Positions 5,477-59,862 of a stretch of 64,000 nucleotides of DNA are shown piece by piece. Made by a program: the position numbers and the translations under genes. How positions within the stretch are numbered: the first letter of the stretch is position 1; each line of letters begins with the position of its first letter. The notes beneath the pieces were generated by a model that ran no database searches, was not told the origin of the DNA, and was given only the letters and a program-made list of their open reading frames with translations. Source of the stretch: a candidate division TM6 bacterium GW2011_GWE2_36_25 (GTDB lineage Bacteria > Babelota > Babeliae > Babelales > UBA12409); contig LBRU01000009.1 of the NCBI GenBank assembly GCA_000991575.1, positions 698 through 64,697 on the forward strand, written 5' to 3'.

Positions 5477-5491
5477 AAAAGGAGTTGTGAG

Positions 5492-6111: not shown

Positions 6112-6126
6112 TTATAAGGAGATATC

Positions 6127-6372
6127 ATGAAAAAGATTTTTATTTCATTACTTTTAATTATGTTATGTACCCCAAAACAAACTAAGCCTAACGGGGAAGG
6201 CCTTGGCATTGGTCTCGGCGTAGGCGCCTTAACCGGTATCGCCATTGGTGCCGCAGCTTCAAGATCTCGTGAACCAAAAGTAGTTTATGTAAGAGCGCCA
6301 GAAAACGATGAAGAAAATGATGAATACACTGATGACGATGATTACCAATCATTTGATGAACAAGATAATTAA
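6127..6372 (+). CDS. small secreted glycine-zipper protein with acidic tail
   Basis: RBS AAGGAG upstream, a signal peptide, a GLGIGLGVGALTGIAIGAAAS zipper, and an acidic C-terminus (ENDEENDEYTDDDDYQSFDEQDN). Its last codon and stop lie inside the repeat element beginning at about 6367. Confidence 0.5.
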   Translation: MKKIFISLLLIMLCTPKQTKPNGEGLGIGLGVGALTGIAIGAAASRSREPKVVYVRAPENDEENDEYTDDDDYQSFDEQDN

Positions 6373-6577
6373 GAACCTCGCAGCAAGCTACGAGGTATAA
6401 CGCTCGTATGGTTCGACTTGCTACATCCTGGGCAAAGTCGAAGGGTCACCACGAGCGCGCTCATCCTGATGCTTCGTCTGCGCTCAGCACTAAAGGCTGC
6501 GCTCATCCTGAGCTTGTCGAAGGATATGAGCGAATATAATGATTATGAAGCAAGCTTCGAGGAGTTTTACCTGTAAA
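6367..6577. repeat. composite hairpin-repeat element, family 1 (copy A, 211 bp, contains one 42-bp unit)
   Basis: It aligns end to end with the reverse complement of 20775-20943, with about 10 substitutions plus one extra 42-bp unit (TGCTTCGTCTGCGCTCAGCACTAAAGGCTGCGCTCATCCTGA). It contains the hairpin modules CGCTCGT...ACGAGCG and CGCTCAT-CCTGAG-CTTG-TCGAAGG-AT-ATGAGCG (6500-6532). Confidence 0.85.
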
Positions 6578-6595
6578 AAGAATTAAAGGGAAAAA

Positions 6596-8004: not shown

Positions 8005-10305
8005 ATGAAAAGTTCACGTTTTTTGAGCATATTTTTATTATGCTCAACACTTCTTAATACTCAGATAACAACCGCAATGGATGGCGCTGATCAACAACAT
8101 CAAAGTACACAAAGCTCTTCCGAAACACACGTTTCAGAGGAACCCTCATCACCAGAGACACCCCCAATAGATGAACAAATTGAAACATCTTCAGAAACAC
8201 CTGTGTCAGAAGAGGCCGAAGAACTCGTATCACCAGAGAGATCCCAAATAGATCAACAAGTTGAAAACATTCCTTCAGAAACACATTTGGCACAAGAGGT
8301 TATTGAAGAAGATACATTTCATGAATCAGAAGCTGAAAGCGAAATGCCTGCAATTCAATTTGATGATGAACTTTCAGTATCGGATGAAAAGCCAAAACGA
8401 TCTATTCTATTTTCACTTCTATCTTCATTCATTAACTGGGGTGGTCATATCGTTGGAAACGCCCTGGCTGAAGGATTAGAAGAAGTAAGAAGAATGGTAA
8501 TTCAAGAAGCGGCACGAAGGGGTCAAAGATATGTTGCGGGCAAAGTAGTTACTTTAGCCCAAACCGCAGCACCCCATATTATGAACGCAACACACTCTAT
8601 TTATCGTAAATCATATGATTTTTCTGATAGGCACCCCGTTCTCTCATTATTCACACCTTCAACACTAGCAACTCTTTCTGGAATAACGGTCGCCTCCCTG
8701 GCCGCAAAAAGCGACTTAGTGCCAACCTGGGTAAAAGTTCTCGCTGTTGGTGGAGGAGCTTACTTTGGCGCACTTCAATTAGAAGCACCGTTTCAAGTTC
8801 TTCGTGGCAAACGCTTTTTCATACAACAAGATCATCAAGATTCTCCATCTCTTGAAGAAATCTTTCGATCACAACCAAGAATAATTACAAAAATTATTGA
8901 TACATTACGTGATCAAGATCTTTATGGTGGCTTTTATTATGAAACAAATGGCACAATCTCAGTCTACGGTGAAAATTCTTCAGCTGAAGATAAGCGCAAT
9001 GTTATCAGAGCAATTGCTCGAGAAGCAAACATACCCGTCTTCTTTATAACAAAAGAAGATTTTGAAAATTCTCCAGAAAATGCTCTTAATACCGTACTCA
9101 AAATCATTAAAAAAGCAGATGCCGCAGCTTTTGCTTATAATACCACCTGCTCATTTGTCTGTTTTGAGAACTTCATGGAATTGTTTAATGAATATGAAGA
9201 AATAAGAAACTTGATATCAAGCATTAGATTATGGAACCCATTATATTCTCTTCACCGCATCATATTTTGGGGCATAAATCAACAAGAATCACATGATGAA
9301 CGTCTGAGAGATCAGTTCTTCTCATTTAAATTACAGCTTACACAATCAAGCGAAGGCCATGAAGCAGCGGCCCCATCATTAAAAGTAATACCTCAACATA
9401 TTCCAACCTTTAAGCCAATTAATTTTAGGGAAGACAAGAAAAACGAATTACCATGTTATGAAGCTAGCGATTTAACACTCGAAGATATTACTGGCGGTTA
9501 TCCTGAAGCAATCGAAGTAATTGTTCATGAATTATCAACTCAGACCCCTGGCCAAGGTGCTGATGGAGTCTTATTATGGGGAAAACCCGGCACCGGAAAA
9601 ACAAGACTTGCTCGTGCATTAGCCGGAACATTTAATGTGCCCTTTTTTAACGTTAAGATTTCACGCGTATTACAAGAAGGAACAAACGCAGGAAACTTCA
9701 TCAATGCTCTTTTTGAAAATGCACATAAAAAAGCAATCAGTGATAAGTCAAAATATGCAATTATATTTTTTGATGAATGCGACAGTCTCTTGCAACCACT
9801 TTCTAAAATAACAGATCCAACTATACGATCAGCAAACGTTGCTCTTCGTTCACAATTGAGTGGTTTCACGCAAGACAAAAAAGTTATCTGTATTGCTGCT
9901 GCAAACTCATCACCGAATAAATTAGATGAAGCATTGCTTCGACCAGGAAGATTTGGCACCCACATTCACTTCAAATTACCCAATGCACAAGCTCGTCAAG
10001 AAGTACTGATTTATTACTTATCAGAAATGGAAGATCCTGCGGAAGCTCAAAGAATTGGGAAAAATTTTGTATACGATACCAAAGGGTTTTCTCAAGCAGA
10101 CCTTGAACAGCTCGTTAAAGATTCAAGACGATGGGCAGAAGCATTTGGCTCAACCATCGAAAAGCAACTACCAATCGTATTATCCAATATGAAAAAAAGC
10201 AAAAATCGTGTCACTAAAGACAGATTGGAAGATGAAGCTTATGCGTATTCATCATCAGAAGATGAGGATGATGTTTTAGGCACCGGCAAAGAAGAAGTAG
10301 AATAA
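8005..10305 (+). CDS. membrane-anchored AAA+ ATPase with signal peptide and acidic N-terminal repeats
   Basis: Walker A GKPGTGKT, Walker B IIFFDECD, and second region of homology ...LDEALLRPGRFGTHIHFKLP. There is an N-terminal signal peptide, about 2.3 copies of an ~80-bp acidic repeat (SSETHVSEE..PE..IDEQIE; 8110-8300) and two central hydrophobic segments. No protease domain is present. Confidence 0.8.
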   Translation: MKSSRFLSIFLLCSTLLNTQITTAMDGADQQHQSTQSSSETHVSEEPSSPETPPIDEQIETSSETPVSEEAEELVSPERSQIDQQVENIPSETHLAQEVIEEDTFHESEAESEMPAIQFDDELSVSDEKPKRSILFSLLSSFINWGGHIVGNALAEGLEEVRRMVIQEAARRGQRYVAGKVVTLAQTAAPHIMNATHSIYRKSYDFSDRHPVLSLFTPSTLATLSGITVASLAAKSDLVPTWVKVLAVGGGAYFGALQLEAPFQVLRGKRFFIQQDHQDSPSLEEIFRSQPRIITKIIDTLRDQDLYGGFYYETNGTISVYGENSSAEDKRNVIRAIAREANIPVFFITKEDFENSPENALNTVLKIIKKADAAAFAYNTTCSFVCFENFMELFNEYEEIRNLISSIRLWNPLYSLHRIIFWGINQQESHDERLRDQFFSFKLQLTQSSEGHEAAAPSLKVIPQHIPTFKPINFREDKKNELPCYEASDLTLEDITGGYPEAIEVIVHELSTQTPGQGADGVLLWGKPGTGKTRLARALAGTFNVPFFNVKISRVLQEGTNAGNFINALFENAHKKAISDKSKYAIIFFDECDSLLQPLSKITDPTIRSANVALRSQLSGFTQDKKVICIAAANSSPNKLDEALLRPGRFGTHIHFKLPNAQARQEVLIYYLSEMEDPAEAQRIGKNFVYDTKGFSQADLEQLVKDSRRWAEAFGSTIEKQLPIVLSNMKKSKNRVTKDRLEDEAYAYSSSEDEDDVLGTGKEEVE

Positions 10306-13637: not shown

Positions 13638-15101
13638 TTATTGCCAACTTTTTCTTAAGAAGTTTTTATATGCATCAAATATTTCTCGATTTTGGCTTAA
13701 CTTCTGCCTTATCTGTTTAAAGGCAAAACGCTTAATTTCTTCATTTTCTAATTTGAGAAATTCGGGCAAGAAATCAATAAACCTAATAGCATCTTCGGTA
13801 TAAACCGTCTGTTCTAATATAAAGCGTTTTATAAATTTTATCACACAAGACATTCTTCGGTCTTCTTGAATTTCATTTATATTTCTCACAATTTCATGAA
13901 CCATTTCCAGATTATTGTTTGAGTAAGCGTACTTTAACAAATCAATGAGAGATCGAGGGTTTATTTTTTCTGCTCCTTTTTTCATGAGTAAAAGAGCAAT
14001 TTTTATATTTCTGAGTGTATCACGATGGATTCCTTTTGTTGCAAAATCTAATACAGACCAACCTTCTGCATCGGTAAGAGTAATATTCGCCCGGAACCTT
14101 AGAAGCTCTTTGGCGGTTTTTCTATTTGCAGATAAAGCGGCGCTCATTAAAGCGGTAACGCCATCTCTGTTTGCTCGATTAATATCAGCACCATTTTCAA
14201 GAAGTAAACGAATAATTTCCGGAGTACCAAGTTCTGCGGCAAACATCAATGGTGATATTCCTGCTCGATAGACAAGAATATCACGTTCATATTTATAGGG
14301 ATCATTTGGATCCAGACCCTTTTTTATGAGCGCTTCAACAGCTATGACGTTATGAGAATGAATAGCAGTAAATAAAGGTGGTTCGCTATATGGCCCATGA
14401 GGAGTTCTAATATCGGCACCATGATTAATAAGAATTTGAACGATTTCGTTGTATCCATGCATTATAGCAAATTGTAAAAGAGTAAGGCGATCAGAGGAAA
14501 AAGAAGTGTCGTTGAGATTAAAACCAGGCATCATTACCAAATGTCTTGTTTGTTCTATATTGTTATTTTTTACTGCTTCGATTAATTGCATTTGACTATT
14601 AGAGGCACCATGATCGAGAAGAAGTTGTGCCATTTCAGTATATCCCTGAGCTCGTGCAAATTCTAAAAGAGTATGGCCTTCAAGCATTAACGACCAAATA
14701 TTGAGTTCTATACCGGGTATTGTTATAAGATCATGTGCACGATCTATATTGTTATTTTTTACTGCCTCAATTAATTTCATTTGACTATTATATGCACCGT
14801 GATCAAAAAGAAGTTGTGCGATTTCCGTATACCCATGACTTTGAGCAAATTCTAAAAGGGTAAGCCCTTCAATTGTTAAATAACAAGTATCGAGGTTAAT
14901 ACTTCCACTTGTGATAAGCTCCGATGCCTGCTTTACATTATTAGTTTTTATTGCTTCGATTAATTGTTCAGTGAGCCATTCGGTGGTGCGGAAAAATCTT
15001 GCAATTGATAAAGGCAGATGGTCCAAAAACTCAGCTTGTGCCGGCGATAAGCCCAAAAAATTATTGACAAAAAGGAGATTTTTAAAATTTTCATATCGCA
15101 C
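13638..15101 (-). CDS. ankyrin-repeat protein
   Basis: Multiple ANK consensus stretches (TPLMFAAELGTPEIIRLLLENGADINRANRDGVTALMSAA). In addition there are three ~62-aa tandem repeats (LIEAVKNNNI...LLEFA.A.GYTE.AQLL.DHGA). Confidence 0.85.
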   Translation of the reverse strand: MRYENFKNLLFVNNFLGLSPAQAEFLDHLPLSIARFFRTTEWLTEQLIEAIKTNNVKQASELITSGSINLDTCYLTIEGLTLLEFAQSHGYTEIAQLLFDHGAYNSQMKLIEAVKNNNIDRAHDLITIPGIELNIWSLMLEGHTLLEFARAQGYTEMAQLLLDHGASNSQMQLIEAVKNNNIEQTRHLVMMPGFNLNDTSFSSDRLTLLQFAIMHGYNEIVQILINHGADIRTPHGPYSEPPLFTAIHSHNVIAVEALIKKGLDPNDPYKYERDILVYRAGISPLMFAAELGTPEIIRLLLENGADINRANRDGVTALMSAALSANRKTAKELLRFRANITLTDAEGWSVLDFATKGIHRDTLRNIKIALLLMKKGAEKINPRSLIDLLKYAYSNNNLEMVHEIVRNINEIQEDRRMSCVIKFIKRFILEQTVYTEDAIRFIDFLPEFLKLENEEIKRFAFKQIRQKLSQNREIFDAYKNFLRKSWQ

Positions 15102-20632: not shown

Positions 20633-20774
20633 AAGTTTTCCTCCATTTGAAGTTATACTAATAGTTTACCTTTTTTTAAAAAAAACTCAAGAAAAACGGG
20701 GCTTTAAAAACCCCGAATAAAAGTGGTTAAAAACAACACAAATTTAATAAACGTTGAAATAGGCTATTTAATTG

Positions 20775-20943
20775 TTTATAGGTAAAATTCCTCGAAGCTT
20801 GCTTCGCAATCATTGTATTCGCTCATATCCTTCGACAGGCTCAGGATGAGCGCGCTCGTGGTGACCCTTCGACTTTGCTCAGGATGCAGCAAGTCGAACC
20901 ATACGAGCGTTATACCGCGTAGTTTGCTATGAGGTTCTTAATT
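20775..20943. repeat. composite hairpin-repeat element, family 1 (copy B, 169 bp, inverted relative to copy A, lacks the 42-bp unit)
   Basis: Its reverse complement aligns over its full length with 6367-6577, apart from the single 42-bp unit. Confidence 0.85.
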
Positions 20944-20960
20944 GGAAATAAAAACAAAGC

Positions 20961-21194
20961 ATTCACCATGAGCGAGCTTGAAACGGAGTGAAAAGTGAGT
21001 CGAATGGTTTTATCGAACGCTCTTCGTTAAACTTTCTTTGTAATTCAGAAAAATAGAAAACTTTATCGTGCGTTCGGTGAGACCCTTCGAGACACTCGCT
21101 ACGCTCGTTCCTCAGGGCGAACGCGTTAGGTAAAATGGTAAGAATGAAGAATGCGTTCGCCCTGAGCGAAGTCGAAGGGTTTTATCGAACGCGA
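20961..21194. repeat. cluster of three family-2 hairpin modules (fwd 20961-21020 degenerate, rev 21068-21125, fwd 21151-21194)
   Basis: The modules share GCGTTCG..CCTGAG..TCGAAGGG..CGAACGC with the arms at 28155-28300 and 32403-32763. For example, 21152-21192 reads TGCGTTCGCCCTGAGCGAAGTCGAAGGGTTTTATCGAACGC. Confidence 0.75.
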
Positions 21195-22099: not shown

Positions 22100-24289
22100 A
22101 TGGATTTCGCTGAATTTTTATCAACCGAATTAAATAACGAACAACAAAAAGCGGTTAGGCATGCAAAAGGACCTCTTCTGGTTATTGCGGGTGCAGGCTC
22201 AGGCAAAACGCGTGTTATAACCAGTCGCATTATCAACCTTATACTCACCGAAAAAGTTACTCCAACTTCAATTATTGCATTAACGTTTACTAATAAAGCT
22301 GCCCAAGAAATGCGTGAACGCGTACAAAAAAGCATTGGCATACCGGCCACTCCTTTTAAAAATAACAGTTTTTTTATTGGAACTTTCCATTCTTATTGCT
22401 TGCGACTTCTTAAAAAAAATGCACACATTTTAAAACTCGATCATTTTTCCATTCTCGATGGCGATGATCAAATAAGCATGTTAAAGAAATTAGTTGATGC
22501 GCATTGCCCTAAAAAAATTCAACCACGCCAAGCTCTTTATCAAATATCCACCCTCAAAAACAATCTCCTCAACCAGCAAGAAACACTCATTGATCCTACC
22601 GTACAAGAACTTTATAATTTATATGAACACGAAAAAAGATTAAGCAACTGTTTAGATTTTGACGATTTACTCATTAAAGCACTTGAACTTTTCAGCTCAA
22701 AAAATTTTAAAACAGCACACCAAAATCATATTCGTCATGTTCTTGTTGATGAATATCAAGATACGAATGTTGTGCAAAATGAATTGCTCAAAGAAATGTG
22801 CCTCGATAAAAAAAAATTCATCATCGATTCACTCTGTGCCGTAGGAGATGAAGATCAATCTATTTACTCATGGCGTGGTGCAACGATTGATAATATGCTC
22901 AATTTCAAAAAAGATTTCCCCGGAACAACACTCATAAAAATTGAACAGAACTATCGCTCAGTAAAACCAATTCTTGAAGCGGCAAATCATATCATTAAAC
23001 ATAATCAAAATCGCCATCCGAAAAAATTGTGGTCAACACGTGAAGGCTCAAACAATATTTTGGAGCTTACGTGCATGTCCGGATTTCAAGAGGCGGATAT
23101 GATTGCGGCAAGTGCTTCATTGTTACAACAAAAAAATGAATTACAAAATTGTGCAGTCCTCTACCGCACCCATTTTCAATCACGTCTTATTGAAGAAGCA
23201 TTAATAAAAAAATCAATTCCGTACAAAATTATCGGCGGCATTCAATTTTATGAACGCAAAGAAATTAAAGACCTGCTCGCCTATTTACGTTTATTAATTA
23301 ATCCTTTTGATAGAATTGCGCTTTTTAGAATACTCAACTGCCCTCCTCGCAGATTGGGTGACAAATTCGCAGAACAATTTCAAAAAGCATGGGAACAAGA
23401 ACCATTTCAAACATTTACTGATATTGCACAAAAACTTTTAGAAGATTTAAAACCTCAACAAAAAAGCAACCTTGAAGATTTTATTAATATTTTCTCATCG
23501 ATAGATCTCTCTTTTTCCCCTGCGCACGCAATCAACCACATGAGCAAAAAATGTGGTTACCTCACTTATCTTAAGGAAGAGTACGAACCCCAAGAAGCAG
23601 AGGCACGCATTCAAAACATTCAAGAATTAATTAATGCTGCTCGCTATTTTGAAGAACAGGGATTAGAAACCACTGAACAATTTCTTCAAGAAATTGCCCT
23701 TTTACAAGATAAAATTAACCAAGAAAATAACACGAACGAACGCCTAACCCTCATGACTATTCACGCAGCAAAAGGACTCGAATTTGACACAATCATTCTT
23801 GCAGGGCTCGAAGAAGGACTCTTGCCCAGTTCAAAATCCCTCGAAAATGAGTCAAATATCGAAGAAGAGCGACGATTATTATATGTAGGTATCACAAGGG
23901 CACGCAAAAAATTAATTCTCTTACAAGCAGGATATCGACACACTTTCGGTTCTATGACTTATCAACAACCCTCTCGCTTCCTCAAAGAACTACCCAATAC
24001 GGGCATTCAGAGGGAAGATTGCTCATATTGGAAAGAATGTCAGACAATTCAATTTTTACGCAGTTTTTTCGGCATAATAGCACCAGAACAGTCAATCCAA
24101 ACCTTTGGCCCCGCAAAAAAATTTAAGGCAGCCTCTAAAAAAGATCTGCACTCGTATCCTTCGACAAGCTCAGGACGAGCGCAGCCTTTAGTGCTGAGCG
24201 AAGCCGAAGCATCAGGACGAGCGCAGCCTTTAGTGCTGAGCGAAGCCGAAGCATCAGGACGAGCGCAGCAGGACGAGCGCAGCCTTTAG
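22100..24289 (+). CDS. uvrD: UvrD/PcrA-family ATP-dependent DNA helicase, helicase core; reading frame terminated inside a repeat array
   Basis: Motif I GAGSGKT, motif II VDEYQDTN, YRS, and motifs V/VI (TIHAAKGLEF...YVGITRARKKL). The final ~45 aa are translated repeat (SGRAQPLVLSEAEA). The TAG stop at 24287-24289 is created by a 14-nt partial repeat unit. Confidence 0.9.
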   Translation: MDFAEFLSTELNNEQQKAVRHAKGPLLVIAGAGSGKTRVITSRIINLILTEKVTPTSIIALTFTNKAAQEMRERVQKSIGIPATPFKNNSFFIGTFHSYCLRLLKKNAHILKLDHFSILDGDDQISMLKKLVDAHCPKKIQPRQALYQISTLKNNLLNQQETLIDPTVQELYNLYEHEKRLSNCLDFDDLLIKALELFSSKNFKTAHQNHIRHVLVDEYQDTNVVQNELLKEMCLDKKKFIIDSLCAVGDEDQSIYSWRGATIDNMLNFKKDFPGTTLIKIEQNYRSVKPILEAANHIIKHNQNRHPKKLWSTREGSNNILELTCMSGFQEADMIAASASLLQQKNELQNCAVLYRTHFQSRLIEEALIKKSIPYKIIGGIQFYERKEIKDLLAYLRLLINPFDRIALFRILNCPPRRLGDKFAEQFQKAWEQEPFQTFTDIAQKLLEDLKPQQKSNLEDFINIFSSIDLSFSPAHAINHMSKKCGYLTYLKEEYEPQEAEARIQNIQELINAARYFEEQGLETTEQFLQEIALLQDKINQENNTNERLTLMTIHAAKGLEFDTIILAGLEEGLLPSSKSLENESNIEEERRLLYVGITRARKKLILLQAGYRHTFGSMTYQQPSRFLKELPNTGIQREDCSYWKECQTIQFLRSFFGIIAPEQSIQTFGPAKKFKAASKKDLHSYPSTSSGRAQPLVLSEAEASGRAQPLVLSEAEASGRAQQDERSL

Positions 24290-24644
24290 TGCTGAGCGAA
24301 GCCGAAGCATCAGGACGAGCGCAGCCTTTAGTGCTGAGCGAAGCCGAAGCATCAGAACGAGCGCAGCCTTTAGTGCTGAGCGAAGCCGAAGCATCAGGAC
24401 GAGCGCAGTCTTTAGTGTTGAGCGAAATCGAAGTATCCGCGCAACCCTCAAGAGAAAGCCATTTTTCAATTCAACATTCCTCTAACAAAAATTTCAATCA
24501 CCAAAAAATAAATTTTTCTGCGAAACACAATACTCCAATAAATAACGATCTAAAAAAGAATAGCAATTACCCCCATAATTCAATTAACACAAAATTAAAA
24601 ACGCACAACGACGCGCTCGTCCTGAGCTTGTCGAAGGATACGAG
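24151..24644. repeat. repeat-bounded insertion inside uvrD/pcrA: 32-bp perfect inverted repeats (24151-24182 / 24613-24644) enclosing a 42-bp tandem array and an AT-rich core
   Basis: Left arm CTCGTATCCTTCGACAAGCTCAGGACGAGCGC is the exact reverse complement of right arm GCGCTCGTCCTGAGCTTGTCGAAGGATACGAG. Both are family-1 hairpin modules. Confidence 0.85.
24171..24436 (+). repeat. 42-bp tandem repeat array (6 units plus one 14-nt partial unit at 24255-24268)
   Basis: The unit is CAGGACGAGCGCAGCCTTTAGTGCTGAGCGAAGCCGAAGCAT. Units start at 24171, 24213, 24269, 24311, 24353 and 24395 (the last is degenerate). Confidence 0.9.
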
Positions 24645-24828
24645 CACATCGATGTGCTTTCAAAAATGTGAATACTCATGGAAAAAGCATCAACCGGTTA
24701 CGCACAAAACATTTGGTGTTGGAGTAATTCAAGATGTAGAAAAAAGGCCGGATGGTTCAACACACATCACGGCCAAATTTAAAAATGGTATCAAAAAAAT
24801 TGATAGCAAATTTTTAGAAGCAGTTTAA
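24289..24828 (+). CDS. uvrD: detached C-terminal segment of the same UvrD/PcrA helicase (different frame)
   Basis: It ends in WKKHQPVTHKTFGVGVIQDVEKRPDGSTHITAKFKNGIKKIDSKFLEAV. This is the conserved PcrA/UvrD C-terminal Tudor-like domain (W..G..V.H..FG.G.V......V.F...G.K.L...F). It has no start codon or RBS of its own other than a GTG inside the repeat. Confidence 0.7.
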   Translation: MLSEAEASGRAQPLVLSEAEASERAQPLVLSEAEASGRAQSLVLSEIEVSAQPSRESHFSIQHSSNKNFNHQKINFSAKHNTPINNDLKKNSNYPHNSINTKLKTHNDALVLSLSKDTSTSMCFQKCEYSWKKHQPVTHKTFGVGVIQDVEKRPDGSTHITAKFKNGIKKIDSKFLEAV

Positions 24829-30443: not shown

Positions 30444-31190
30444 TCATTTAAATCTTCCTCTTAAAATGGCAACTTGAATTGCAAATCGAACGCTCTTACC
30501 TATTTTCAACTTCAAGGCTTCAAGGCTTCCTTTTATATTAAGATTGAGTTTTTTCTCATGAGAAACTAACACTCGCAACTCTTCAAAAATACGCATGTCT
30601 TTTATAACCACATTAAATTGAGTCCGAGGATTAGAACTTACAATAGTCCCCCGAGCAAAAAGCCAAAGAGGAGGATGTTTAATACATTCAAACGCTTCGA
30701 CTATGCTGTTTCTCAGGTGTTCTACAATGACCGGATCATCGGTAGTTTTCAAAATGTGATCTATTTGTTTTACAATCAATCGCACAAGCATGTGATCTTT
30801 TTCGCAAACCACACGCTCCAGATGATTAATACCTATATCTGAAATGATACGAGCCCCTTTATCAAGAAGAAATTTAACTAGGTGATAATTTTTTTGACTA
30901 ATAGCGATCGCTAAAGGAGTTTCACCTCTTCCATCTATCGCATTAACATCAGCCCCTTTTTGCACAAGCACCCGCGCCATATCATACTGCTTATTCTCAA
31001 TAGCACATATCAATACAGTTATTCCATTTTGCTGAGACTCTAACAAAGATCTATCTTGTTCATACTGAGCGATTACGCTCTCAATATTTCCATTTTTAAT
31101 AGCTTCAAAAAATACTATTCTTGATTCCATTGCAGAACAACAGAAAGCAAAAAATAAAACAGATACAAATAGCAGTTTGCACAATTTCAT
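30444..31190 (-). CDS. secreted ankyrin-repeat protein
   Basis: Signal peptide plus ANK repeats (GITVLICAIENKQYDMARVLVQKGADVNAIDGRGETPLAIAISQKNYHLVKFLLDKGA). Confidence 0.8.
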   Translation of the reverse strand: MKLCKLLFVSVLFFAFCCSAMESRIVFFEAIKNGNIESVIAQYEQDRSLLESQQNGITVLICAIENKQYDMARVLVQKGADVNAIDGRGETPLAIAISQKNYHLVKFLLDKGARIISDIGINHLERVVCEKDHMLVRLIVKQIDHILKTTDDPVIVEHLRNSIVEAFECIKHPPLWLFARGTIVSSNPRTQFNVVIKDMRIFEELRVLVSHEKKLNLNIKGSLEALKLKIGKSVRFAIQVAILRGRFK

Positions 31191-32287: not shown

Positions 32288-32399
32288 TCAATTAAGATTT
32301 TTTATTTAGTATAACATGCGCATAAGAAAATGAAGCGCTTGACTGCTTTTAAACCTTTCACATATCAATGTTCATATTGATAATAAACAGTGTATTTGA

Positions 32400-32766
32400 T
32401 TTCTCGCGTTCGCCCTGAGGGAGCCATTGTAATGGCGATTCGAAGGGTTTTATCGAACGCACTTATTTCATAAAACCAGTCCACCCAAACATAATAAGTC
32501 GTTCTTTTTTTTGACGGGTCCATTTTTTTATTTTTCGTTCTGCTGCTAAGACTTCTAATCTTGAAGTAAATTTTTCTGCATAAACAAGTTTAAGTGGCCT
32601 GCGATTAAAAGTATAACATTTATATAAACCCATATTGTGCTCAGAAATGCGTATCATTGCATTTTAAAATATAAAGATAAAATTCCATAACATTACTTCA
32701 GGTGCGCGTTCGATAAAACCCTTCGAATCGCCATTACAATGGCTCCCTCAGGGCGAACGCGAGAAA
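32400..32766. mobile_element. GIY-YIG nuclease remnant framed by perfect ~60-bp inverted repeats (family-2 hairpin arms)
   Basis: 32403-32460 is the exact reverse complement of 32706-32763 (58/58 by manual comparison; 61 nt including the flanking TTT/AAA). The only cargo is the ORF 32463-32657. Confidence 0.75.
32463..32693 (-). pseudogene. decayed stand-alone GIY-YIG (URI/COG2827-type) endonuclease
   Basis: The ORF reads ..ISEHNMG..RRPLKLVYAEKFTSRLEVLAAERKIKKWTRQKKERLI, which matches the C-terminal two-thirds of small GIY-YIG proteins. The same frame upstream reads MLWNFIFIF-stop-NA-MIRIS. This gives an in-frame TAA (32664-32666) and loss of the GIY/YIG segment. Confidence 0.6.
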
Positions 32767-34364: not shown

Positions 34365-35727
34365 TTGCATTCTTATTTTATTTGGTGCCTTGGGTGATTT
34401 GGCAAAGAAAAAAATTATTCCGGCGCTCTATTCACTAGTACACAAAGAGCAGCTCGACAATTTACACATCATCGGCACTGATTTAGCAAATATCTCAAAA
34501 CATAACATGCTCAAAGCTGCACAAGAACTTTTGCCTGAAATCGATGAAAAAACATGGCATGCATTTGAACAAATTACACATTATCAGCAACTCGATATTA
34601 ATAATTTAGAAGACTTTAAAAAACTAAAAGAATTTATTGAGGTTATAGAAAAGAAACACAATCTTTCTGGAAATCGATTAATATATTGTGCGACACCATC
34701 AGATCTTTTTAGCACGATTACCAAACAGAGTCATGCTGCCCGCATTATTACCTGCACGTCAATTGAAGAAAGACCATGGCAACGCATTATTTATGAAAAA
34801 CCTTTCGGGCGTGATTACACATCGGCAAAAAAACTTAATAAAGAAATTCACAATTGCCTCAATGAGACACAAGTTTATCGCGTTGATCATTATCTCGCAA
34901 AAGAGCTTATTGCCAATATCACGTTACTGAGATTCACCAATCGAATGCTTGAACCGCAATGGAATCATCATGACATTGCATCGGTAGAAATTATTTTAGA
35001 TGAAGAAATCGGTGTAGCACATCGTGGAAATTATTATAATCAAACAGGCGCTCTTCGCGATGTGGTACAAAATCACATATTTGAACTTCTTGCGTTAGTA
35101 AGCATGGAACCACCGACGACTATTACCGGATCAGACTTACAAGAAAAACGTGCTGAGGTTCTCAAAAATCTTTCTTTCGACAGCGGCATTCTCGGACAAT
35201 ATGAAGGATTTCGTACAATCGATGGTGTAAAAAAAGATTCTATGACAGAAACGTTTGCAGCTCTAAAACTCTTTGTTAATAACGAACGCTGGAAAGGTGT
35301 TCCTTTTTACATTCGTACGGGCAAATGTTTACAAAAAACTAAAAAATTAATTCATCTCAATTTTAAACCAGAACATTGTCGTTTAATCGCCGGCTGTCCA
35401 TTACCCGCAAACCGTTTAACCATTGCTATTGAACCTCACGCAGGATTTTCGCTTGAACTTAATGCAAAAAAACCTGGTTACACAACTACCGTTGTTCCTA
35501 TCACGATGGAATTTTGTCATGAATGTTTATTCGGCGTTTATACACCTCAGGCATATGAAGTAATTTTATTAGAAGTCATTGATGGCGACCAAGGAATCTC
35601 GGTCCGCTTTGATGAAATTGAATACAGCTGGAAAATTATTGATGAAATTTATCGCAAACAATTACCTCTCTATTTTTATAAATGCGGAAGCAATGGACCA
35701 GATGAAGAATTTGAGGGAAAAATATGA
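34357..35727 (+). CDS. zwf: glucose-6-phosphate 1-dehydrogenase
   Basis: N-terminal LFGALGDLAKKKIIPALY, the active-site motif RVDHYLAKE, and EKPFG. It overlaps pgi by 8 nt. Confidence 0.9.
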   Translation: MRDCILILFGALGDLAKKKIIPALYSLVHKEQLDNLHIIGTDLANISKHNMLKAAQELLPEIDEKTWHAFEQITHYQQLDINNLEDFKKLKEFIEVIEKKHNLSGNRLIYCATPSDLFSTITKQSHAARIITCTSIEERPWQRIIYEKPFGRDYTSAKKLNKEIHNCLNETQVYRVDHYLAKELIANITLLRFTNRMLEPQWNHHDIASVEIILDEEIGVAHRGNYYNQTGALRDVVQNHIFELLALVSMEPPTTITGSDLQEKRAEVLKNLSFDSGILGQYEGFRTIDGVKKDSMTETFAALKLFVNNERWKGVPFYIRTGKCLQKTKKLIHLNFKPEHCRLIAGCPLPANRLTIAIEPHAGFSLELNAKKPGYTTTVVPITMEFCHECLFGVYTPQAYEVILLEVIDGDQGISVRFDEIEYSWKIIDEIYRKQLPLYFYKCGSNGPDEEFEGKI

Positions 35728-36716
35728 AGATCGGCATCATTGGTTTAGGAAAAATGGGAAGCGCAATTGCCACACGACTTGCACAAGGAGATCATGATGT
35801 TATTGGTTATGATCCACATGTAAAAATAACCATTAACCGGGTAAAACAAGTTGACGCACTCCAAGCAATCACTCAACAAGAGATTATTTGGCTTATGGTT
35901 CCTGCAGAAGCCATTGATAAAATCTTGCAAGAACTTACACCCCATTTAATTGAAAAAAACATATTGAAAGGCTGCGCTCGTCCTGATGCTTCGTCTACGC
36001 TCAGCACTAAAGGCTGCGCTCGTCCTGATGCTTCGTCTACGCTCAGCACTAAAGGCTGCGCTCGTCCTGAGCTTGTAATTATTGATGGCGGAAACAGTTT
36101 TTATAAAGATTCTAAAAGACGTGCAAGCACATTGGCAAAATCAAACATTTTTTATCTTGATTGTGGAACCTCTGGTGGCATTCATGGATTAAAAGATGGT
36201 TTTTGTTTAATGATCGGTGGCAATGAAGATGCATTTAAAAAAGCAGAACCCATTTTCGAAACAATTGCAGCAAAAGATGGTTATGCCCTAGTTGGTCCTT
36301 CTGGCGCAGGTCATTATGTCAAAATGGTGCATAATGGAATTGAATACGCGTTACTCCAAAGTTATGCAGAGGGCTTTTCAATTTTACACGCAAGCCGACA
36401 ATTTCCCCATTTAAATTTAGAACAAATAAGTGGCTTATGGATGCATGGTTCAATTATACGTTCCTTTTTACTTGAATTAACTCATGAAATTTTTAAAGAA
36501 AAAATAGATTTTAACAAAATTAAAGGAATAATTGGAGAAAGTGGCACTGGTAGATGGGCACAAGAAGAAGCAAATTTATTAGGCCTTAATACACCGGCGC
36601 TTGAAAGTGCTTTGAAAACGAGAAAAGAATCACAGATAAAGGGCGACTCGTTTACCATGAAACTCATCGCCCTTTTACGAAATAAATTTGGTGGCCATCC
36701 TGTTGAAAAAGAATAA
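35724..36716 (+). CDS. gnd: 6-phosphogluconate dehydrogenase (short, YqeC/Gnd-like form) carrying an in-frame repeat insertion
   Basis: MKIGIIGLGKMGSAIA Rossmann start, IIDGGNS, GTSGG and GAGHYVKMVHNGIEYA. A 36-aa insert (KGCARPDASSTLST x2 plus KGCARPEL) sits directly before IIDGGNS. Confidence 0.85.
   Translation: MKIGIIGLGKMGSAIATRLAQGDHDVIGYDPHVKITINRVKQVDALQAITQQEIIWLMVPAEAIDKILQELTPHLIEKNILKGCARPDASSTLSTKGCARPDASSTLSTKGCARPELVIIDGGNSFYKDSKRRASTLAKSNIFYLDCGTSGGIHGLKDGFCLMIGGNEDAFKKAEPIFETIAAKDGYALVGPSGAGHYVKMVHNGIEYALLQSYAEGFSILHASRQFPHLNLEQISGLWMHGSIIRSFLLELTHEIFKEKIDFNKIKGIIGESGTGRWAQEEANLLGLNTPALESALKTRKESQIKGDSFTMKLIALLRNKFGGHPVEKE
35967..36076 (-). repeat. 42-bp unit array (about 2.6 units) inside gnd, opposite orientation to the uvrD array
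   Basis: ATGCTTCGTCTACGCTCAGCACTAAAGGCTGCGCTCGTCCTG occurs at 35986-36027 and 36028-36069, with partial units on both sides. It is the reverse complement of the 24171-24436 unit with 3-4 substitutions. Confidence 0.85.
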
Positions 36717-37639: not shown

Positions 37640-38680
37640 TTAGCTAGGACGACATCCTGGAAGACCATGATCATCTTCATGATCGCGCTCTCGAGACTCC
37701 GGTTCTCGACCATCAAAAATTCTCTCTAACGCTTCAAGCCTATGACGCAGTTCTATCGCCGCAACGAGCTCACGCGCACGAGCATAAACTCGGTCACGCT
37801 CTGTAAGCGCATGAACAAGTGACAACATTGAACCCAAAATCTCATTATCAGCTGAAGCTTCTTCATGCCCTGCTCGGCCAACAAAACTACTGCGCGGTTC
37901 TTCGGAATTTCGATTTGAAGATAATCCTCTAACAAATCCGCTTGCAAACCTTCTTTCCGCATCTCTACGTCGTGCAGCTAAACCAATTTCTTCAGTTCTG
38001 CCGCGTTCGGATAAATCATTTCTAGCAACTGATCGAGAACTCTCTTCCAATGCAGCTTCCAAATCACGTTCTTCAGCTCTCTCTGAACGATGATCCCCCA
38101 AACCAAAAAATCCTCTTGCAAATCTTCTTTCTGCAGCCCTGCGACGCTCAGCTAAATCACGAGCTTCTGCATCTCTGCGGCTCTCAGCCAATATACGCAC
38201 AAAATCGTGATCGTGGGGATATGATTCATCACTTTCTAATTCATCGTGAGCCGAAGGCCTCACAAGTATTATACCAGGACCTACTTCTCTTACTTCACGT
38301 CCTTCTGAGGCAAATATTGAAAGAAGCGTCGGCAAATCTAATCCATGATCATCATCTGAACGAACACGCACATACTCTTTCTCTAACTCATCTTTAAGTG
38401 GCTTACGGCATACTGGACACCCATAAACACCAACGCCCTCTTTAAGTTGCCTTGTCAAACATTCCTTGTGAAAAATATGTCTTGCGTCACCATCTTCACA
38501 TAATTCTTCACATGTAAGAATAGCTTCCGACGGTTCAATATCACTTAAACAAATTGGACATGTAGCGGTCTTAACTTCTTCAACTTCCGCTGGAATCTCT
38601 TTTTTACCATCAACCTCTTTTTCTTTCCTTGCGTTAATGGAAAAAATTAATAACAACATACAAATAGATAACTTTTTCAT
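37640..38680 (-). CDS. secreted RING-like (RING-H2-type) zinc-finger protein with Arg/Glu-rich repeat tail
   Basis: It has a signal peptide. The motif CPIC-x12-C-x3-C-x6-H-x2-H-x2-C-x13-CPVC resembles a cross-brace RING. The C-terminal half contains the duplicated segment RRRAAERRFARGF / RRRDAERRFASGF and is visibly more GC-rich than its surroundings. Confidence 0.55.
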   Translation of the reverse strand: MKKLSICMLLLIFSINARKEKEVDGKKEIPAEVEEVKTATCPICLSDIEPSEAILTCEELCEDGDARHIFHKECLTRQLKEGVGVYGCPVCRKPLKDELEKEYVRVRSDDDHGLDLPTLLSIFASEGREVREVGPGIILVRPSAHDELESDESYPHDHDFVRILAESRRDAEARDLAERRRAAERRFARGFFGLGDHRSERAEERDLEAALEESSRSVARNDLSERGRTEEIGLAARRRDAERRFASGFVRGLSSNRNSEEPRSSFVGRAGHEEASADNEILGSMLSLVHALTERDRVYARARELVAAIELRHRLEALERIFDGREPESRERDHEDDHGLPGCRPS

Positions 38681-38778: not shown

Positions 38779-39078
38779 TTAAAAATTTAAGAAGGCCGCT
38801 AGCGGAATGAGTTCTTGATCAATTCGCTTTTTAAACGAATTATCAATTTTATTGTATTGAATAATGTCCACCGTGAAAGGAAGATCACTTTCTTCAAATT
38901 TTTCTTTGAGAAGTTCATATTCGTAATCAGATATATCACTTTTAAGACAAATATCTAAATCTGAAAAAGGTCTCTGTGTCCCCTTTGCTCTTGAACCAAA
39001 CACATAAACCTGATCGTAATCTTTTAAAATAGTACGAAGAATATCAATGTCTTCAGAGGATATGCCATGTTTTTTCAT
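38779..39078 (-). CDS. minimal nucleotidyltransferase (MNT/MntA-type antitoxin)
   Basis: VYVFGSRAKGTQRPFSDLDI matches the GSxxxG...DxD NTase signature. It is 99 aa long and overlaps the upstream HEPN gene by 4 nt. Confidence 0.8.
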   Translation of the reverse strand: MKKHGISSEDIDILRTILKDYDQVYVFGSRAKGTQRPFSDLDICLKSDISDYEYELLKEKFEESDLPFTVDIIQYNKIDNSFKKRIDQELIPLAAFLNF

Positions 39079-39536
39079 AAATTTTTAATCTGATCTATTA
39101 TTTTTGATAACTGCTTTTGAAAATGAGGCAAAAATTCAAAAATCTCTTTCGCATACATCTCACTATAAATATGCGTCGTCATATTACGTTTTTTTATTAC
39201 CTCAAACCAAATTTTAGGATCTTCAATTAGATGTTCTTTTGCTGCTTCACGAAAAACATCACGCGGATTATTAATATTCAAGCCTTTAAATGCAAGAACT
39301 TTTTTGAGCATCTTCCATAATAATTCATAGGTAAACTCAAATCGCTGAATTGCCCCATCTCGTTCCAATTGCGTTTGAGCCTTAGCGACAGCTTCATCAA
39401 ATGCTCGTTGCGCTTTTATAAGCGGCGCAATATTAATTTTTCCATTCAAAATAGTTATTTCATCCGTCACAGAACCCCTCAAATTATTATCATAATGATC
39501 AGCGTAACAGGAACAAAAAAGAAAACAACTTGGCAA
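39075..39536 (-). CDS. HEPN-domain protein (HI0074/NTase-substrate-binding family; HepT-type toxin)
   Basis: It carries the R-x4-H-x-Y motif (KKRNMTTHIYS) and the FEFTYELLWKMLKKVL helix typical of the HI0074 family. The true start is probably downstream of the annotated ATG. Confidence 0.7.
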   Translation of the reverse strand: MPSCFLFCSCYADHYDNNLRGSVTDEITILNGKINIAPLIKAQRAFDEAVAKAQTQLERDGAIQRFEFTYELLWKMLKKVLAFKGLNINNPRDVFREAAKEHLIEDPKIWFEVIKKRNMTTHIYSEMYAKEIFEFLPHFQKQLSKIIDQIKNL

Positions 39537-47688: not shown

Positions 47689-47763
47689 TGGTAGGCGCGA
47701 GCGGAATTGAACCGCTGACCCTTGCTACGTCAAAGCAATGCTCTACCCCTGAGCTACGCGCCT
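47689..47763 (-). tRNA. tRNA-Val (anticodon GAC), CCA encoded
   Basis: Manual cloverleaf: AGGCGCG-TA-GCTC-AGGGGTA-GAGC-A-TTGCT-TTGACGT-AGCAA-GGGTC-AGCGG-TTCAATT-CCGCT-CGCGCCT-A-CCA. Confidence 0.85.
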
Positions 47764-59133: not shown

Positions 59134-59210
59134 TGGCAGGCCAGGAGGGATTCGAACCCCCAACCGTCAGATTTGGAGTCTGTCGCTCTACCATTTCGAG
59201 CTACTGGCCT
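59134..59210 (-). tRNA. tRNA-Trp (anticodon CCA), CCA encoded
   Basis: AGGCCAG-TA-GCTC-GAAATGGTA-GAGC-G-ACAGA-CTCCAAA-TCTGA-...-GGGGG-TTCGAAT-CCCTC-CTGGCCT-G-CCA. It sits in the conserved position upstream of secE. Confidence 0.85.
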
Positions 59211-59282
59211 CGAACATCTGCGACATCCACGTCGCCCATTATTTCATCTCTTTTTTTGAGACCACTCTCAAAACTCAGCTTC

Positions 59283-59358
<76 letters not shown>

Positions 59359-59528
59359 CTCTGATACTACTAACAACCTTACATCTTATCTATAAGGTTA
59401 AATTAAAAAAAGAGAAAATACAAATTATATCGTGCTCAGTCAACTTTTCTAACGCTCATTTTTCAACAAAAATTGAATTGTTGAAAAATGCCCTTAAAAA
59501 TAAATATCAAAGTACCATTAACATAAAA

Positions 59529-59604
59529 TGGAGCTGGCGGTCGGACTTGAACCAACGACCTGCTGATTACAAATCAGCTGCTCTACCAACTGAGCTACGC
59601 CAGC
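59529..59604 (-). tRNA. tRNA-Thr (anticodon TGT), CCA encoded
   Basis: GCTGGCG-TA-GCTC-AGTTGGTA-GAGC-A-GCTGA-TTTGTAA-TCAGC-AGGTC-GTTGG-TTCAAGT-CCGAC-CGCCAGC-T-CCA. Confidence 0.85.
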
Positions 59605-59851: not shown

Positions 59852-59862
59852 ATAACGAAAAC

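Follow-up and report, generated by a model that had tools for sequence, protein, structure and literature searches.

A palindromic-repeat family member carried in frame, with a tandem array of variable copy number, by the 6-phosphogluconate dehydrogenase gene of a candidate division TM6 bacterium

The window analyzed here, a 64-kb stretch of DNA from a candidate division TM6 metagenome-assembled genome (MAG), contains a gnd gene with a tandem array inside its reading frame. The gene and the parts of its array are as follows.

35724..36716, + strand: gnd, short-chain decarboxylating 6-phosphogluconate dehydrogenase (6PGDH), 330 aa, KKQ02851.1 (candidate division TM6 MAG) by exact protein look-up
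35967..36008, + strand: B unit 1, 42 nt, KGCARPDASSTLST
36009..36050, + strand: B unit 2, same sequence as unit 1
36051..36076, + strand: last part of the 30-nt loop insert (AAAGGCTG), followed by the C hairpin's left arm and half of its loop (CGCTCGTCCTGAGCTTGT)

The original prediction placed 2.6 copies of a 42-bp unit in frame in gnd at 35967-36076. Tandem Repeats Finder and the ORF agree, the former with period 42, 2.6 copies and 98% matches at 35967-36074, the latter reading ...KNILKGCARPDASSTLSTKGCARPDASSTLSTKGCARPELVIIDGGNS. Left arms of the hairpin start at 35975, 36017 and 36059, and the array ends in CCTGAGCTTGT, a truncated form of the hairpin CGCTCGTCCTGAGCTTGTCGAAGGATACGAGCG. By itself the array folds no better than shuffles (z +1.8 and +0.6).

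Pfam models PF03446 and PF00393, matched on Gnd relatives, mark the Rossmann NAD(P)-binding and 6PGD helical domains of a short-chain 6PGDH. The best PDB match to Gnd is 4e21 (E 4e-56), one of three entries (4e21, 8ihe and 6vpb) that all score E 1e-54 to 1e-56, and Foldseek gives TM scores of 0.74-0.76 to the solved short 6PGDHs 4e21 and 10gw. Residues 80-117 of Gnd have no counterpart in 4e21, whose residues 109 and 110 follow each other directly across the gap. The insert had been called extra and lineage-specific; the 4e21 gap bears this out, as do the orthologues, the majority of which have no insert at the loop and others of which have different versions of it. It had also been expected to form a surface loop just before the IIDGGNS motif. 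AlphaFold2 supports this, with pLDDT below 50 at residues 84-101 and 105-109, between helix 61-83 and strand 118-121, and a core at 90.4; the insert is predicted to be a disordered surface loop immediately before the IIDGGNS strand, with the fold intact.

Gnd looks functional. In addition to the confident core and the TM scores to solved 6PGDHs, 49 of 49 invariant alignment columns are retained despite the insert, and dN/dS is 0.18 against the homolog at locus L001 and 0.27 against that at L002, which indicates purifying selection. Decay of gnd into a pseudogene, in a genome that is reduced and host-dependent and with the repeat marking erosion, is very unlikely. Dependentiae metabolism is reduced, and in a sister MAG, GCA_000991965.1, a 122-nt deletion at the hairpin divides gnd into pieces of 139 and 168 aa; against this, the window and at least nine other contigs have an intact ORF, and pgi, zwf and gnd form a conserved, intact gene cluster. 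Gnd is presumably made with the repeat peptide in place, and the tryptic peptide predicted from the insert is GCARPDASSTLSTK.

Further members of the repeat family lie elsewhere in the window. The 42-nt unit is found at 6 places at three or fewer mismatches, compared with 0 in 100 shuffles, and repeat-family sites number six in the 64 kb. Those outside gnd, with the uvrD reading frames that contain some of them, are listed below.

6367..6587, + strand: full intergenic composite element, with A hairpin 6401-6457, one B unit 6458-6499, C hairpin 6500-6532 and flanking modules
20771..20944, - strand: full intergenic composite without B unit, with A hairpin 20853-20909 and C hairpin 20820-20852
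22100..24289, + strand: uvrD/pcrA helicase core ORF, 729 aa, Pfam UvrD-helicase and UvrD_C over residues 11-608
24149..24437, - strand: reverse-orientation element in the uvrD linker, with complete C hairpin 24149-24181, then about 6.5 B units, read as VLSEAEASGRAQPL
24256..24269, no strand assigned: 14-nt partial unit that shifts the uvrD frame, coinciding exactly with N runs in sister assemblies L067 and L068
24289..24828, + strand: ORF with the remaining array, an AT-rich linker, a second C hairpin and the PcrA/UvrD C-terminal Tudor-like domain
24614..24646, + strand: lone C hairpin within the uvrD linker, with translation LVLSLSKDTS

The A and C hairpins are adjacent and are approximate reverse complements of each other. 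The composite at 6367..6587 forms two adjacent hairpins (fold z -4.1) and is 94% identical to positions 9700-9920 of L062; that at 20771..20944 folds with z -3.6. B copy number varies from 0 (20771-20944) through 1 (6367-6587), 1.6-2.6 (gnd) and 2 (L002, LigT) to 6.5 or more (uvrD). The core hairpin is 33 nt long, CGCTCRTCCT-GAGCTTGTCGAA-GGATAYGAGCG, and 33-nt hairpins have folding energies of -7.5 and -6.7 kcal/mol (z -2.6 and -2.7). Across 87 distinct copies, stem pairing holds in 73.8% of cells, versus 60.8% in shuffles and 32-47% in slid controls, and the stem covariation score is 0.373 versus 0.187, a value reached in 0 of 500 shuffles. The mobile-looking unit is this 33-nt hairpin, inside a modular A-B(n)-C element. 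The 42-nt unit, which had been taken for the inserted element, is only a sub-part of it, the 12-nt left hairpin arm plus the 30-nt loop insert, multiplied in place. Units are identical inside one array and different between loci, as expected for amplification in place.

Such amplification, and the identity of the array units, would also suit a native low-complexity linker born by duplication within gnd and unrelated to any dispersed element. This reading is scarcely credible. The unit is 93-95% identical to the uvrD arrays, to a copy in a ligT/2H-phosphoesterase gene and to intergenic composites with flanking hairpin modules, copies that refute a native origin, and its GC content is 57% versus roughly 31-43% in the window. 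The suggestion that the unit was selected for coding compatibility also fails: four of its six frames are open, a result equaled or bettered by 54% of 5000 composition-matched shuffles.

In uvrD the same unit is read from the other strand, as the original prediction stated, with 2-3 base differences from the gnd unit; Tandem Repeats Finder calls this reverse-complement array at 24166-24437. ORF 22100..24289 terminates within the array, after the 14-nt partial unit. The ORF that follows matches the C-terminus of P0124 (51% identity over 47 aa, E 6e-16), where relatives have PF21196, and is 165, 179 or 193 aa long within one population. Because the break falls at the N-run position of two sister assemblies, it is probably an assembly collapse. 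The claim that the unit entered two genes without breaking them is not supported: uvrD is split in the window, and the split gives no proof in either direction. A biological frameshift was dropped as unproven, given N runs in L067 and L068 at the exact point. A programmed frameshift, or a phase-variable mutator uvrD, found no support, since gain or loss of units leaves the frame unchanged and the 14-nt glitch is linked to assembly.

The Gnd loop carries different alleles in different relatives. The gnd of L001, 79% identical to the window in amino acid sequence, has the hairpin alone, and that of L002 has A + 2 B + C. The gnd of L003 is empty at the loop, yet it is 99.3-99.9% identical to L002 on both sides; the two differ by a 260-nt versus 56-nt recombination patch with diverged flanks and show no clean insertion. 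No de novo transposition event is documented. A distant homolog, P0050, has a different hairpin (A-type, nested) at the same loop. Repeated targeting of the loop could mean target preference instead of a selective filter. Within one population, gnd carries 1.6 or 2.6 units, with products of 329 and 343 aa that differ by one unit, and four of five gnd structural variants are in frame. As in a coding VNTR, copy number is polymorphic among close strains and the frame is preserved.

The truncated end module noted in the original prediction is present as CCTGAGCTTGT, in the window's assembly only. The right arm of the C hairpin is absent at 36051..36076; comparison with L072, L074, L071 and L073 shows 39 nt deleted relative to the common allele, with GAGCTTGT joined directly to AATTATTG. 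This right-hand junction occurs in one public contig, versus a complete hairpin in seven other contigs of the same population.

A dispersed repeat spliced into gnd by mis-assembly would make the whole insert an artefact, and several observations point that way. L004, which was considered as a diverged gnd allele and rejected because its left half is a ligT copy, is a demonstrable gnd/ligT chimera joined within the element. Five of ten contigs end in the array, three MAGs of one project each have a different hairpin deletion (39, 30 and 122 nt), the window's allele is found in a single contig, and the uvrD glitch matches the N-gaps of sister assemblies. Three TM6 MAGs, those of KKQ02851.1, KKP95064.1 and KKQ19504.1 (the last in GCA_000991965.1), derive from groundwater metagenomes. 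An artefactual insert is nevertheless improbable: insert and both gnd flanks occur together in at least ten contigs from NCBI, JGI, ENA and Logan assemblies, two further species (L001 and L002) share the insert, every one of these gnd copies except that of GCA_000991965.1 has it in frame, and a de Bruijn join needs common k-mers, which the flanks lack. What mis-assembly probably explains is detail, namely the truncated end, the frameshift in uvrD and perhaps the exact number of copies, and not the insertion. The L004 chimera, the split gnd, the N-gaps and the probably spurious uvrD frameshift all occur at the repeat in short-read metagenome assemblies. The repeat breaks or mis-joins such assemblies, and calls of pseudogenes and of insertions in MAGs at these sites need read support.

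We think it likely that the gnd array is a tolerated in-frame insertion of a palindromic repeat in a loop of the protein, which became a coding VNTR by in-place duplication. This reading builds on the anatomy of the insert, its family membership, absence from orthologues, polymorphism and loop position, and on purifying selection. A member of the family, whose 33-nt hairpin resembles REP/BIME elements and whose A-B(n)-C build resembles BOX, would have landed in the gnd loop between the last Rossmann helix and the IIDGGNS strand, in an ancestor of the present TM6/Dependentiae lineage. It would have survived because it was in frame, had no stops in that frame and occupied a surface loop that is permissive. 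A 42-nt segment within the C hairpin, comprising the 12-nt left arm CGCTCGTCCTGA and the 30-nt loop insert, would have duplicated head to tail. Expansion would likely have proceeded by replication slippage or unequal recombination, with slippage the presumed cause. Copy-number changes keep the frame because 42 = 14 x 3, and the array would thereby act as a coding VNTR, extending an otherwise normal enzyme by a disordered 14-residue repeat. This process would also have given rise to the arrays in the uvrD linker (opposite strand), the ligT/2H-phosphoesterase gene and the intergenic copies. The repeat peptide in Gnd is presumably neutral.

The loop might instead have been gained adaptively, giving Gnd, UvrD and LigT a new function (interaction, regulation or localization in the host cell) tuned by copy number. 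Retention of the frame across the 79%-identical window and L001 sequences, the independent hit on the same loop in the distant lineage of P0050 and the four of five in-frame structural variants would fit such a gain. It is quite improbable, given that the peptide is wholly different by strand and frame (KGCARPDASSTLST versus VLSEAEASGRAQPL), that the near-identical strain L003 lacks the insert, that the length of the insert varies freely, that it is modeled as disordered, that the same DNA is common between genes, and that the peptide is present in only four proteins among 1.84 billion representatives. The repeat peptides matched no Pfam family, and the uvrD-frame peptide had no match in 5.8 billion proteins, possibly a result of the low-complexity bias correction in HMMER.

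Under the reading favored here, a tolerated palindromic insertion, the repeat would have been mobile. A search of the 64-kb window and locus fragments found no transposase or RAYT for the family. L001 has an IS200-type gene three genes away from gnd, and a link to this Y1 transposase was rejected, as there are no hairpins at its ends and it is absent from the window; its TnpA had no tblastn match in the window or loci L001-L060 (64 kb plus fragments, with RAYTs divergent). As in a MITE, the A and C hairpins provide terminal inverted repeats; direct repeats that would mark target-site duplication were not seen at the junctions of the L002 gnd, LigT and intergenic copies.

The phenomenon is already known from Rickettsia RPEs and from REPs inside genes, and the gnd array is a fresh example. 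RPEs (Ogata et al. 2000, reviewed in PMC3184786 and PMC3733652) are small palindromic repeats that occur in intergenic regions and in frame in housekeeping genes, where they are tolerated; RPE clusters encode 43-82 aa (PMC3733652). The TM6 repeat is like them in being a small palindromic repeat of a host-dependent bacterium, as RPEs are of an obligate intracellular one, and in its tolerated in-frame insertion, here in the gnd loop, a GT4 linker, and TamB-like, heparinase-like, MurG-like and LigT genes. It differs in its 33-nt core hairpin, its modular build and its 42-nt tandem array, the last not described for RPEs. The phylum also differs, and since the host is a member of TM6/Dependentiae, RPE membership is not claimed; the likeness is one of description, with no claim of sequence relatedness. 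The RPE-type phenomenon, selfish palindromes translated in essential proteins, would extend to the uncultured, amoeba-associated phylum Dependentiae.

REP/BIME elements, including intragenic REPs (Di Nocera et al. 2013, PMC3733652) and REPINs (PMC3116915), are 20-40-nt imperfect GC-rich palindromes with stem covariation, found as two subtypes in inverted pairs, mostly at gene ends and sometimes inside ORFs. The TM6 family is alike: a short palindromic stem-loop, dispersed, mostly extragenic and in inverted pairs. Replication and repair genes hold many of the intragenic REPs (PMC3733652), a parallel to the uvrD copy. REP superfamilies are defined by GTAG or CGTC tags, whereas the TM6 hairpin consensus has the ends CGCTC...GAGCG and neither tag, and no RAYT was found in the 64 kb plus fragments searched. 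Pneumococcal BOX elements, boxA-boxB(n)-boxC (Croucher et al. 2011, PMC3049150), resemble the TM6 repeat in build, with two terminal modules of inverted similarity (here A and C) and a middle module of about 42-45 nt (here B) in 0 to several tandem copies. Both vary in copy number between strains and allow ORFs on both strands. BOX elements, however, are rarely translated inside essential enzymes and come from an unrelated host with unrelated sequence, and the TM6 middle module includes one arm of a terminal hairpin; the likeness is again descriptive, and no homology is claimed. The Coxiella burnetii elements QMITE1 and QMITE2 (Wachter et al. 2018, PMC5896051) measure 150-400 bp and are bounded by direct repeats, with a GTAG REP in QMITE2. 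Like the TM6 repeat, they are non-autonomous, belong to an intracellular bacterium and overlap annotated ORFs, with possible changes to the proteins; in contrast to them, the TM6 repeat shows no direct repeats. Finally, coding minisatellites or intragenic VNTRs share with the TM6 array head-to-tail units, a length that is a multiple of three, strain copy-number variation and homogenization. The TM6 coding VNTR differs in that its unit comes from a dispersed palindromic element and not from a host gene, and it would illustrate one route from dispersed repeat to coding minisatellite in a housekeeping enzyme.

No relevant literature was found on the repeat sequence, its peptides, or palindromes or in-frame repeats in Dependentiae. 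Rfam returned only tRNAs at gathering level, and no credible match emerged when the full element was scanned by E-value. An exact 22-mer of the B unit had no match in 185,579 species-representative genomes, and the viral contigs searched for the hairpin, as a possible vector, had none. Metagenomes hold further copies, in a LigT gene and at intergenic sites. The terminal module was collected from 56 loci, about 33 of them from at least nine Dependentiae/Babeliales MAGs, and about 5 of these 33 copies lie deep within long Pfam-confirmed ORFs. The hosts among long ORFs are genes for a GT4 glycosyltransferase (interdomain linker) and TamB-like, heparinase-like and MurG-like proteins. The collected loci contain 129 matches to the hairpin core, the majority at ORF ends.

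Classical REPs are, to our knowledge, species-specific, whereas the 21-nt core of the TM6 hairpin is identical across phyla. We tentatively raise the possibility, which we hold to be less than even, that the 33-nt hairpin is an undescribed REP-like element common to several phyla, one that colonizes coding sequences and seeds coding VNTRs in core enzymes of the host-dependent Dependentiae. If so, the hairpin would be either horizontally mobile between phyla or bound by a widely conserved factor, and the sharing of its core is the part most worth following. The identical 21-nt core occurs in Dependentiae, at 36-46% GC, and, contrary to expectation, in Dehalococcoidia/Chloroflexota, at 55-65% GC, with single matches in other phyla, and the hairpin loop carries nested insertions.

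Tandem Repeats Finder, run on the window, places an array with a period of 42 nt (2.6 copies, 98% matches) at 35967-36074 and the reverse-complement array of the same unit at 24166-24437; the unit has six matches in the window at three or fewer mismatches, against none in 100 shuffles. These results confirm the original prediction that one 42-bp unit occurs in frame in gnd and as its reverse complement in uvrD, and its anatomy of the gnd array was good. The gnd gene, a member of a pgi-zwf-gnd cluster, encodes a short-chain decarboxylating 6-phosphogluconate dehydrogenase (PDB matches 4e21, 8ihe and 6vpb, E 1e-54 to 1e-56), identical to NCBI KKQ02851.1 from a 71-kb MAG contig of TM6/Dependentiae. 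Residues from about 80 to 117 have no counterpart in the solved enzymes in the PDB alignment. Typical orthologues, 290-305 residues long, lead from a helix straight into (I/V)IDGGNS with no insert, so that the segment is extra, as had been expected.

Repeat copies and host reading frames in the window
6367-6587: complete intergenic composite, A and C hairpins with one 42-nt unit within the C hairpin
20771-20944: complete intergenic composite, A and C hairpins, no 42-nt unit
22100..24289: uvrD reading frame, UvrD helicase core at residues 11-608 (Pfam)
24149-24181: complete C hairpin in uvrD, element in reverse orientation, from residue ~685
24289..24828: downstream uvrD reading frame; remainder of the array, AT-rich linker, second C hairpin, conserved C-terminal Tudor-like domain
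24614-24646: the second uvrD C hairpin, read as LVLSLSKDTS
35724..36716 (+): gnd with the array, 330 aa, reading ...KNILKGCARPDASSTLSTKGCARPDASSTLSTKGCARPELVIIDGGNS

The dN/dS ratio of gnd is 0.18 against locus L001 and 0.27 against locus L002, both from relatives, and the protein keeps 49 of the 49 invariant columns in a 54-sequence alignment. Its AlphaFold2 model (mean pLDDT 90.4, pTM 0.85) reaches TM scores of 0.74-0.76 with solved short 6PGDHs. The model leaves the insert unstructured; it runs between helix 61-83 and strand 118-121, and residues 84-101 and 105-109 score a pLDDT below 50. The predicted structure thus puts the insertion point in a surface loop before the IIDGGNS strand. The loop leads into the strand at its N-terminal end, the side that faces away from the cofactor in Rossmann folds. 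The gnd insert is a real, tolerated, in-frame palindromic repeat that has turned into a coding VNTR; it occupies a surface loop, and the enzyme looks active.

GC-rich repeats occur at six sites of the window, in a background of roughly 31-43% GC. Five belong to the hairpin family of the gnd array, two of them as complete intergenic composites, whose A hairpin is CGCTCGTATGGTTCGAC...CACCACGAGCG and whose C hairpin is CGCTCATCCT-GAGCTTGTCGAA-GGATATGAGCG. Written out with one unit, the C hairpin becomes CGCTCATCCTGA | TGCTTCGTCTGCGCTCAGCACTAAAGGCTG | CGCTCATCCTGA | GCTTGTCGAAGGATATGAGCG; the 42-mer is therefore a repeat of two pieces, the 12-nt left arm of the C hairpin and a 30-nt loop insert. 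Both complete composites (6367-6587 and 20771-20944) fold as two neighbouring hairpins, much more stably than shuffles do (z -4.1 and -3.6). The gnd array by itself folds no better than shuffles (z +1.8 and +0.6), as it lacks the right arm. Layout and folding together give the build A-B(n)-C, where B is the 42-nt unit and n is 0, 1, 1.6-2.6 (gnd), 2 (L002 gnd and a ligT gene) or at least 6.5 (uvrD). The sixth site, at approximately 21040-21190, is a related GC-rich palindromic repeat that shares its intergenic region with the 20771-20944 composite; its core differs, being CCCTTCGACTTCGCTCAGGGCGAACGC / GCGTTCGCCCTGAGGAACGAGCG...TCTCGAAGGG. The composite at 6367-6587 is placed between two of a run of five to six small ORFs (5213-6931; 81-111 aa), each of which begins with a signal-like segment and continues as a body rich in Gly/Ala or Gly/Trp/Tyr.

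Among contigs whose Zwf proteins are identical, the gnd array ends on its right side in five different ways.

Structures of gnd among contigs with identical Zwf
L072: Gnd 343 aa; complete, 2.6 units, full hairpin and YRSELDNPII
L074: Gnd 329 aa; one unit fewer
L071: Gnd 333 aa; 30-nt deletion following GAGCTTGT
Window: Gnd 330 aa; 39-nt deletion following GAGCTTGT
GCA_000991965.1: Gnd 139 + 168 aa; 122-nt deletion splitting gnd

Seven contigs, drawn from four sources, have the 343-aa form. The three deletion forms have one contig apiece, all out of one MAG project, and five of ten contigs terminate within the array. The contig of GCA_000991965.1 (LBSN01000008.1; L066/L073) matches the window at 100% identity for 3371 + 5054 nt flanking the junction; its 122-nt deletion begins directly after the hairpin (3550-3580), and its first 264 nt, an inverted copy of window 32389-32652, look like a hairpin-type assembly artefact. 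In ENA ERZ909580 contig k127_52957 (L004), a ligT copy is joined to gnd via the element: ~300 nt at its start encode the N-terminal half of ligT, with that gene's element copy, the remainder is gnd 100% identical to the window, and the whole is annotated as one 333-aa protein (P0002). This contig is a chimera joined through the common repeat. From the comparison of alleles across contigs, the insertion in gnd itself is solid. The truncated CCTGAGCTTGT module said to end the array is indeed present in the window, on one contig only against seven with the complete form, and may reflect a rare allele or else have arisen in assembly or curation.

Among close relatives, variation in Gnd is confined to the loop before IDGGNS. 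L001 (~82-86% identity to the window Gnd over aligned columns, 79% by BLASTP) has AAAGGCTG and a complete C hairpin, then ECKSEPDNP, and no more at the loop. In L002 the loop holds A, two B and C, 68 extra codons, while in L003, with flanks 99.3-99.9% identical to those of L002, the site is empty. The two differ by a 260-nt versus a 56-nt patch whose immediate flanks have diverged; this is therefore allelic replacement via recombination and not the clean footprint of a transposition. At the same loop, a distant Dependentiae Gnd (P0050, 49% identity) bears an A-type hairpin with a nested insert, a different member of the family, so that independent hits on the loop number at least two. It is either a preferred target or, more simply, one of the few sites where insertion survives. 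L001 also encodes, at 3439-3876, an IS200-type Y1 transposase with its own, different subterminal palindromes; the syntenic window position lacks this gene.

Neither the claim that both host genes remain unbroken nor that of selection for coding compatibility is supported. The uvrD gene as written in the window is split, its frame running into a stop after a 14-nt partial unit at 24256-24269. The downstream reading frame retains the Tudor-like domain (51% identity over 47 aa to the C-terminus of protein P0124, E 6e-16). In two sister assemblies from this population, L067 (GCA_000991965.1) and L068, N runs lie within the array exactly at the frame break, two more contigs terminate there, and the downstream ORF has 165, 179 or 193 aa depending on the sample. 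These signs make a collapsed assembly, of an array exceeding the read span, the most likely cause of the frameshift. As to compatibility, the unit is open on both strands as proposed, in four of six frames, two on each strand (KGCARPDASSTLST, KAALVLMLRLRSAL, SAERRRSIRTSAAF, VLSVDEASGRAQPL), but 54% of 5000 shuffles with the same bases have four or more open frames. Openness on both strands is therefore at chance level for a 42-mer of 57% GC and no evidence of selection.

The unit itself, judged by its few matches, is private to this TM6/Dependentiae lineage, its parent hairpin being widespread. An exact 22-mer of it has no match in 185,579 representative genomes, and a 23-nt pattern, fixed at 22 bases with R at the other, finds four metagenome loci. 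Two are copies of a LigT/2H-phosphoesterase gene with A, a spacer, two B and C in frame between the gene's halves, the third is a short intergenic array, and the fourth is a contig with the full composite and a variant array of 56-nt period. The variant array, at 5430-5700 of metagenome locus L062 and apparently intergenic, has four copies of its 56-nt period, the unit being B with an extra CGCTCATTTCTCGCTTG. A search of 1.84 billion representative proteins with the gnd-frame peptide gives no matches beyond fragments of Gnd, the chimera, the LigT protein and a single intergenic ORF of 60 aa.

When species-representative genomes were scanned for the 21-nt C core GAGCTTGTCGAAGGATAYGAG, 56 loci came up, ~33 of them from at least nine Dependentiae/Babeliales MAGs and 19 from Dehalococcoidia/Chloroflexota MAGs, complete chromosomes among them. 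Other phyla gave seven single matches versus ~2 expected by chance; single matches are in Saccharibacteria, Mesorhizobium alhagi, Novosphingobium, Propionibacteriaceae and a Bacteroidetes MAG. With core and stems repeated in Dehalococcoidia/Chloroflexota, the family is common to very distant phyla. The latter MAGs (loci L010, L014, L020, L023, L025, L027, L029-L033, L038, L040, L041, L047, L055, L057-L059) have 55-65% GC, matching stems, and A-type hairpins paired with the core. This sharing of the core by several phyla is the most interesting loose end. The encoded peptides PELVEG, LSLSKD, FDKLR and VRQAHHER presumably recur in "hypothetical proteins" of many phyla, which would fit a very wide distribution.

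Covariation was measured on 87 distinct copies, obtained by collecting all 34-mers around TTCGAYNNGCTY, the loop core by itself. Stem pairing holds in 73.8% of cells versus 60.8% in shuffles (32-47% in slid controls), and the covariation score is 0.373 versus 0.187, observed values reached by none of 500 shuffles. A and C types are roughly mutual reverse complements with compensatory differences (TCC/GGA versus TGG/CCA; A-T versus G-C at stem position 6; CGCTC/GAGCG versus CGTTC/GAACG), and many copies hold nested loop inserts. About five of the ~33 Dependentiae matches lie deep within long ORFs of genes confirmed by Pfam: a GT4 glycosyltransferase (interdomain linker) and TamB-like, heparinase II/III-like and MurG-like genes. 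Most others lie at ORF ends, like REPs. Taken over the Dependentiae loci, each of the hairpin's five open frames is translated somewhere.

In behaviour the repeat resembles Rickettsia palindromic elements (RPEs) and intragenic REPs, which are tolerated in-frame insertions with clusters encoding 43-82 aa and, for intragenic REPs, a noted bias towards replication and repair genes (PMC3733652, PMC3184786). Its A-B(n)-C build with strain-variable B number parallels pneumococcal BOX elements (PMC3049150), a likeness of build, and Coxiella QMITEs are a further intracellular analogue (PMC5896051). Neither GTAG nor CGTC, the tags of the REP superfamilies, is present. A tblastn search of the window and loci L001-L060 with the L001 IS200-type TnpA found no RAYT or parent IS, RAYTs being divergent, and junctions of the L002 gnd, LigT and intergenic copies have no target-site duplication. 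Rfam holds no family for it, and the literature search returned no paper with its sequence strings or peptides and nothing linking Dependentiae to palindromic or in-frame repeats. We assign it to none of the RPE, REP, BOX or QMITE families; the coding-VNTR insert in gnd is a further case of a known phenomenon.

Adjoining the gnd region is a nucleotidyltransferase/HEPN-like (NTase_sub_bind) pair (39075-39536, minus strand, and upstream; L066 6183-6874), a toxin-antitoxin-type module. At 37640-38680 (minus strand), a 346-aa protein has a signal-like N-terminal segment, a RING finger (PF13639, E 9e-7), then acidic and arginine-rich internal repeats; it resembles a eukaryote-like E3 ligase effector, and the syntenic region of L001 lacks the gene. 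Other tandem repeats lie at 14554-14966 in ORF 13638..15101 (minus strand, 487 aa; period 189 nt, 2.2 copies, 76% matches), neighboured by a 248-aa gene at 30444..31190 (minus strand) with ankyrin repeats annotated in sister assembly L067, and near the start of ORF 8005..10305 (plus strand, 766 aa), an 81-nt (27-codon) duplication at 8148-8299 (1.8 copies, 83% identity). Five tRNA genes cluster in 0.8 kb at 59137-59947 (minus strand), and an isolated one at 47692-47763 (minus strand) lies upstream of rpoB/rpoC-sized ORFs.
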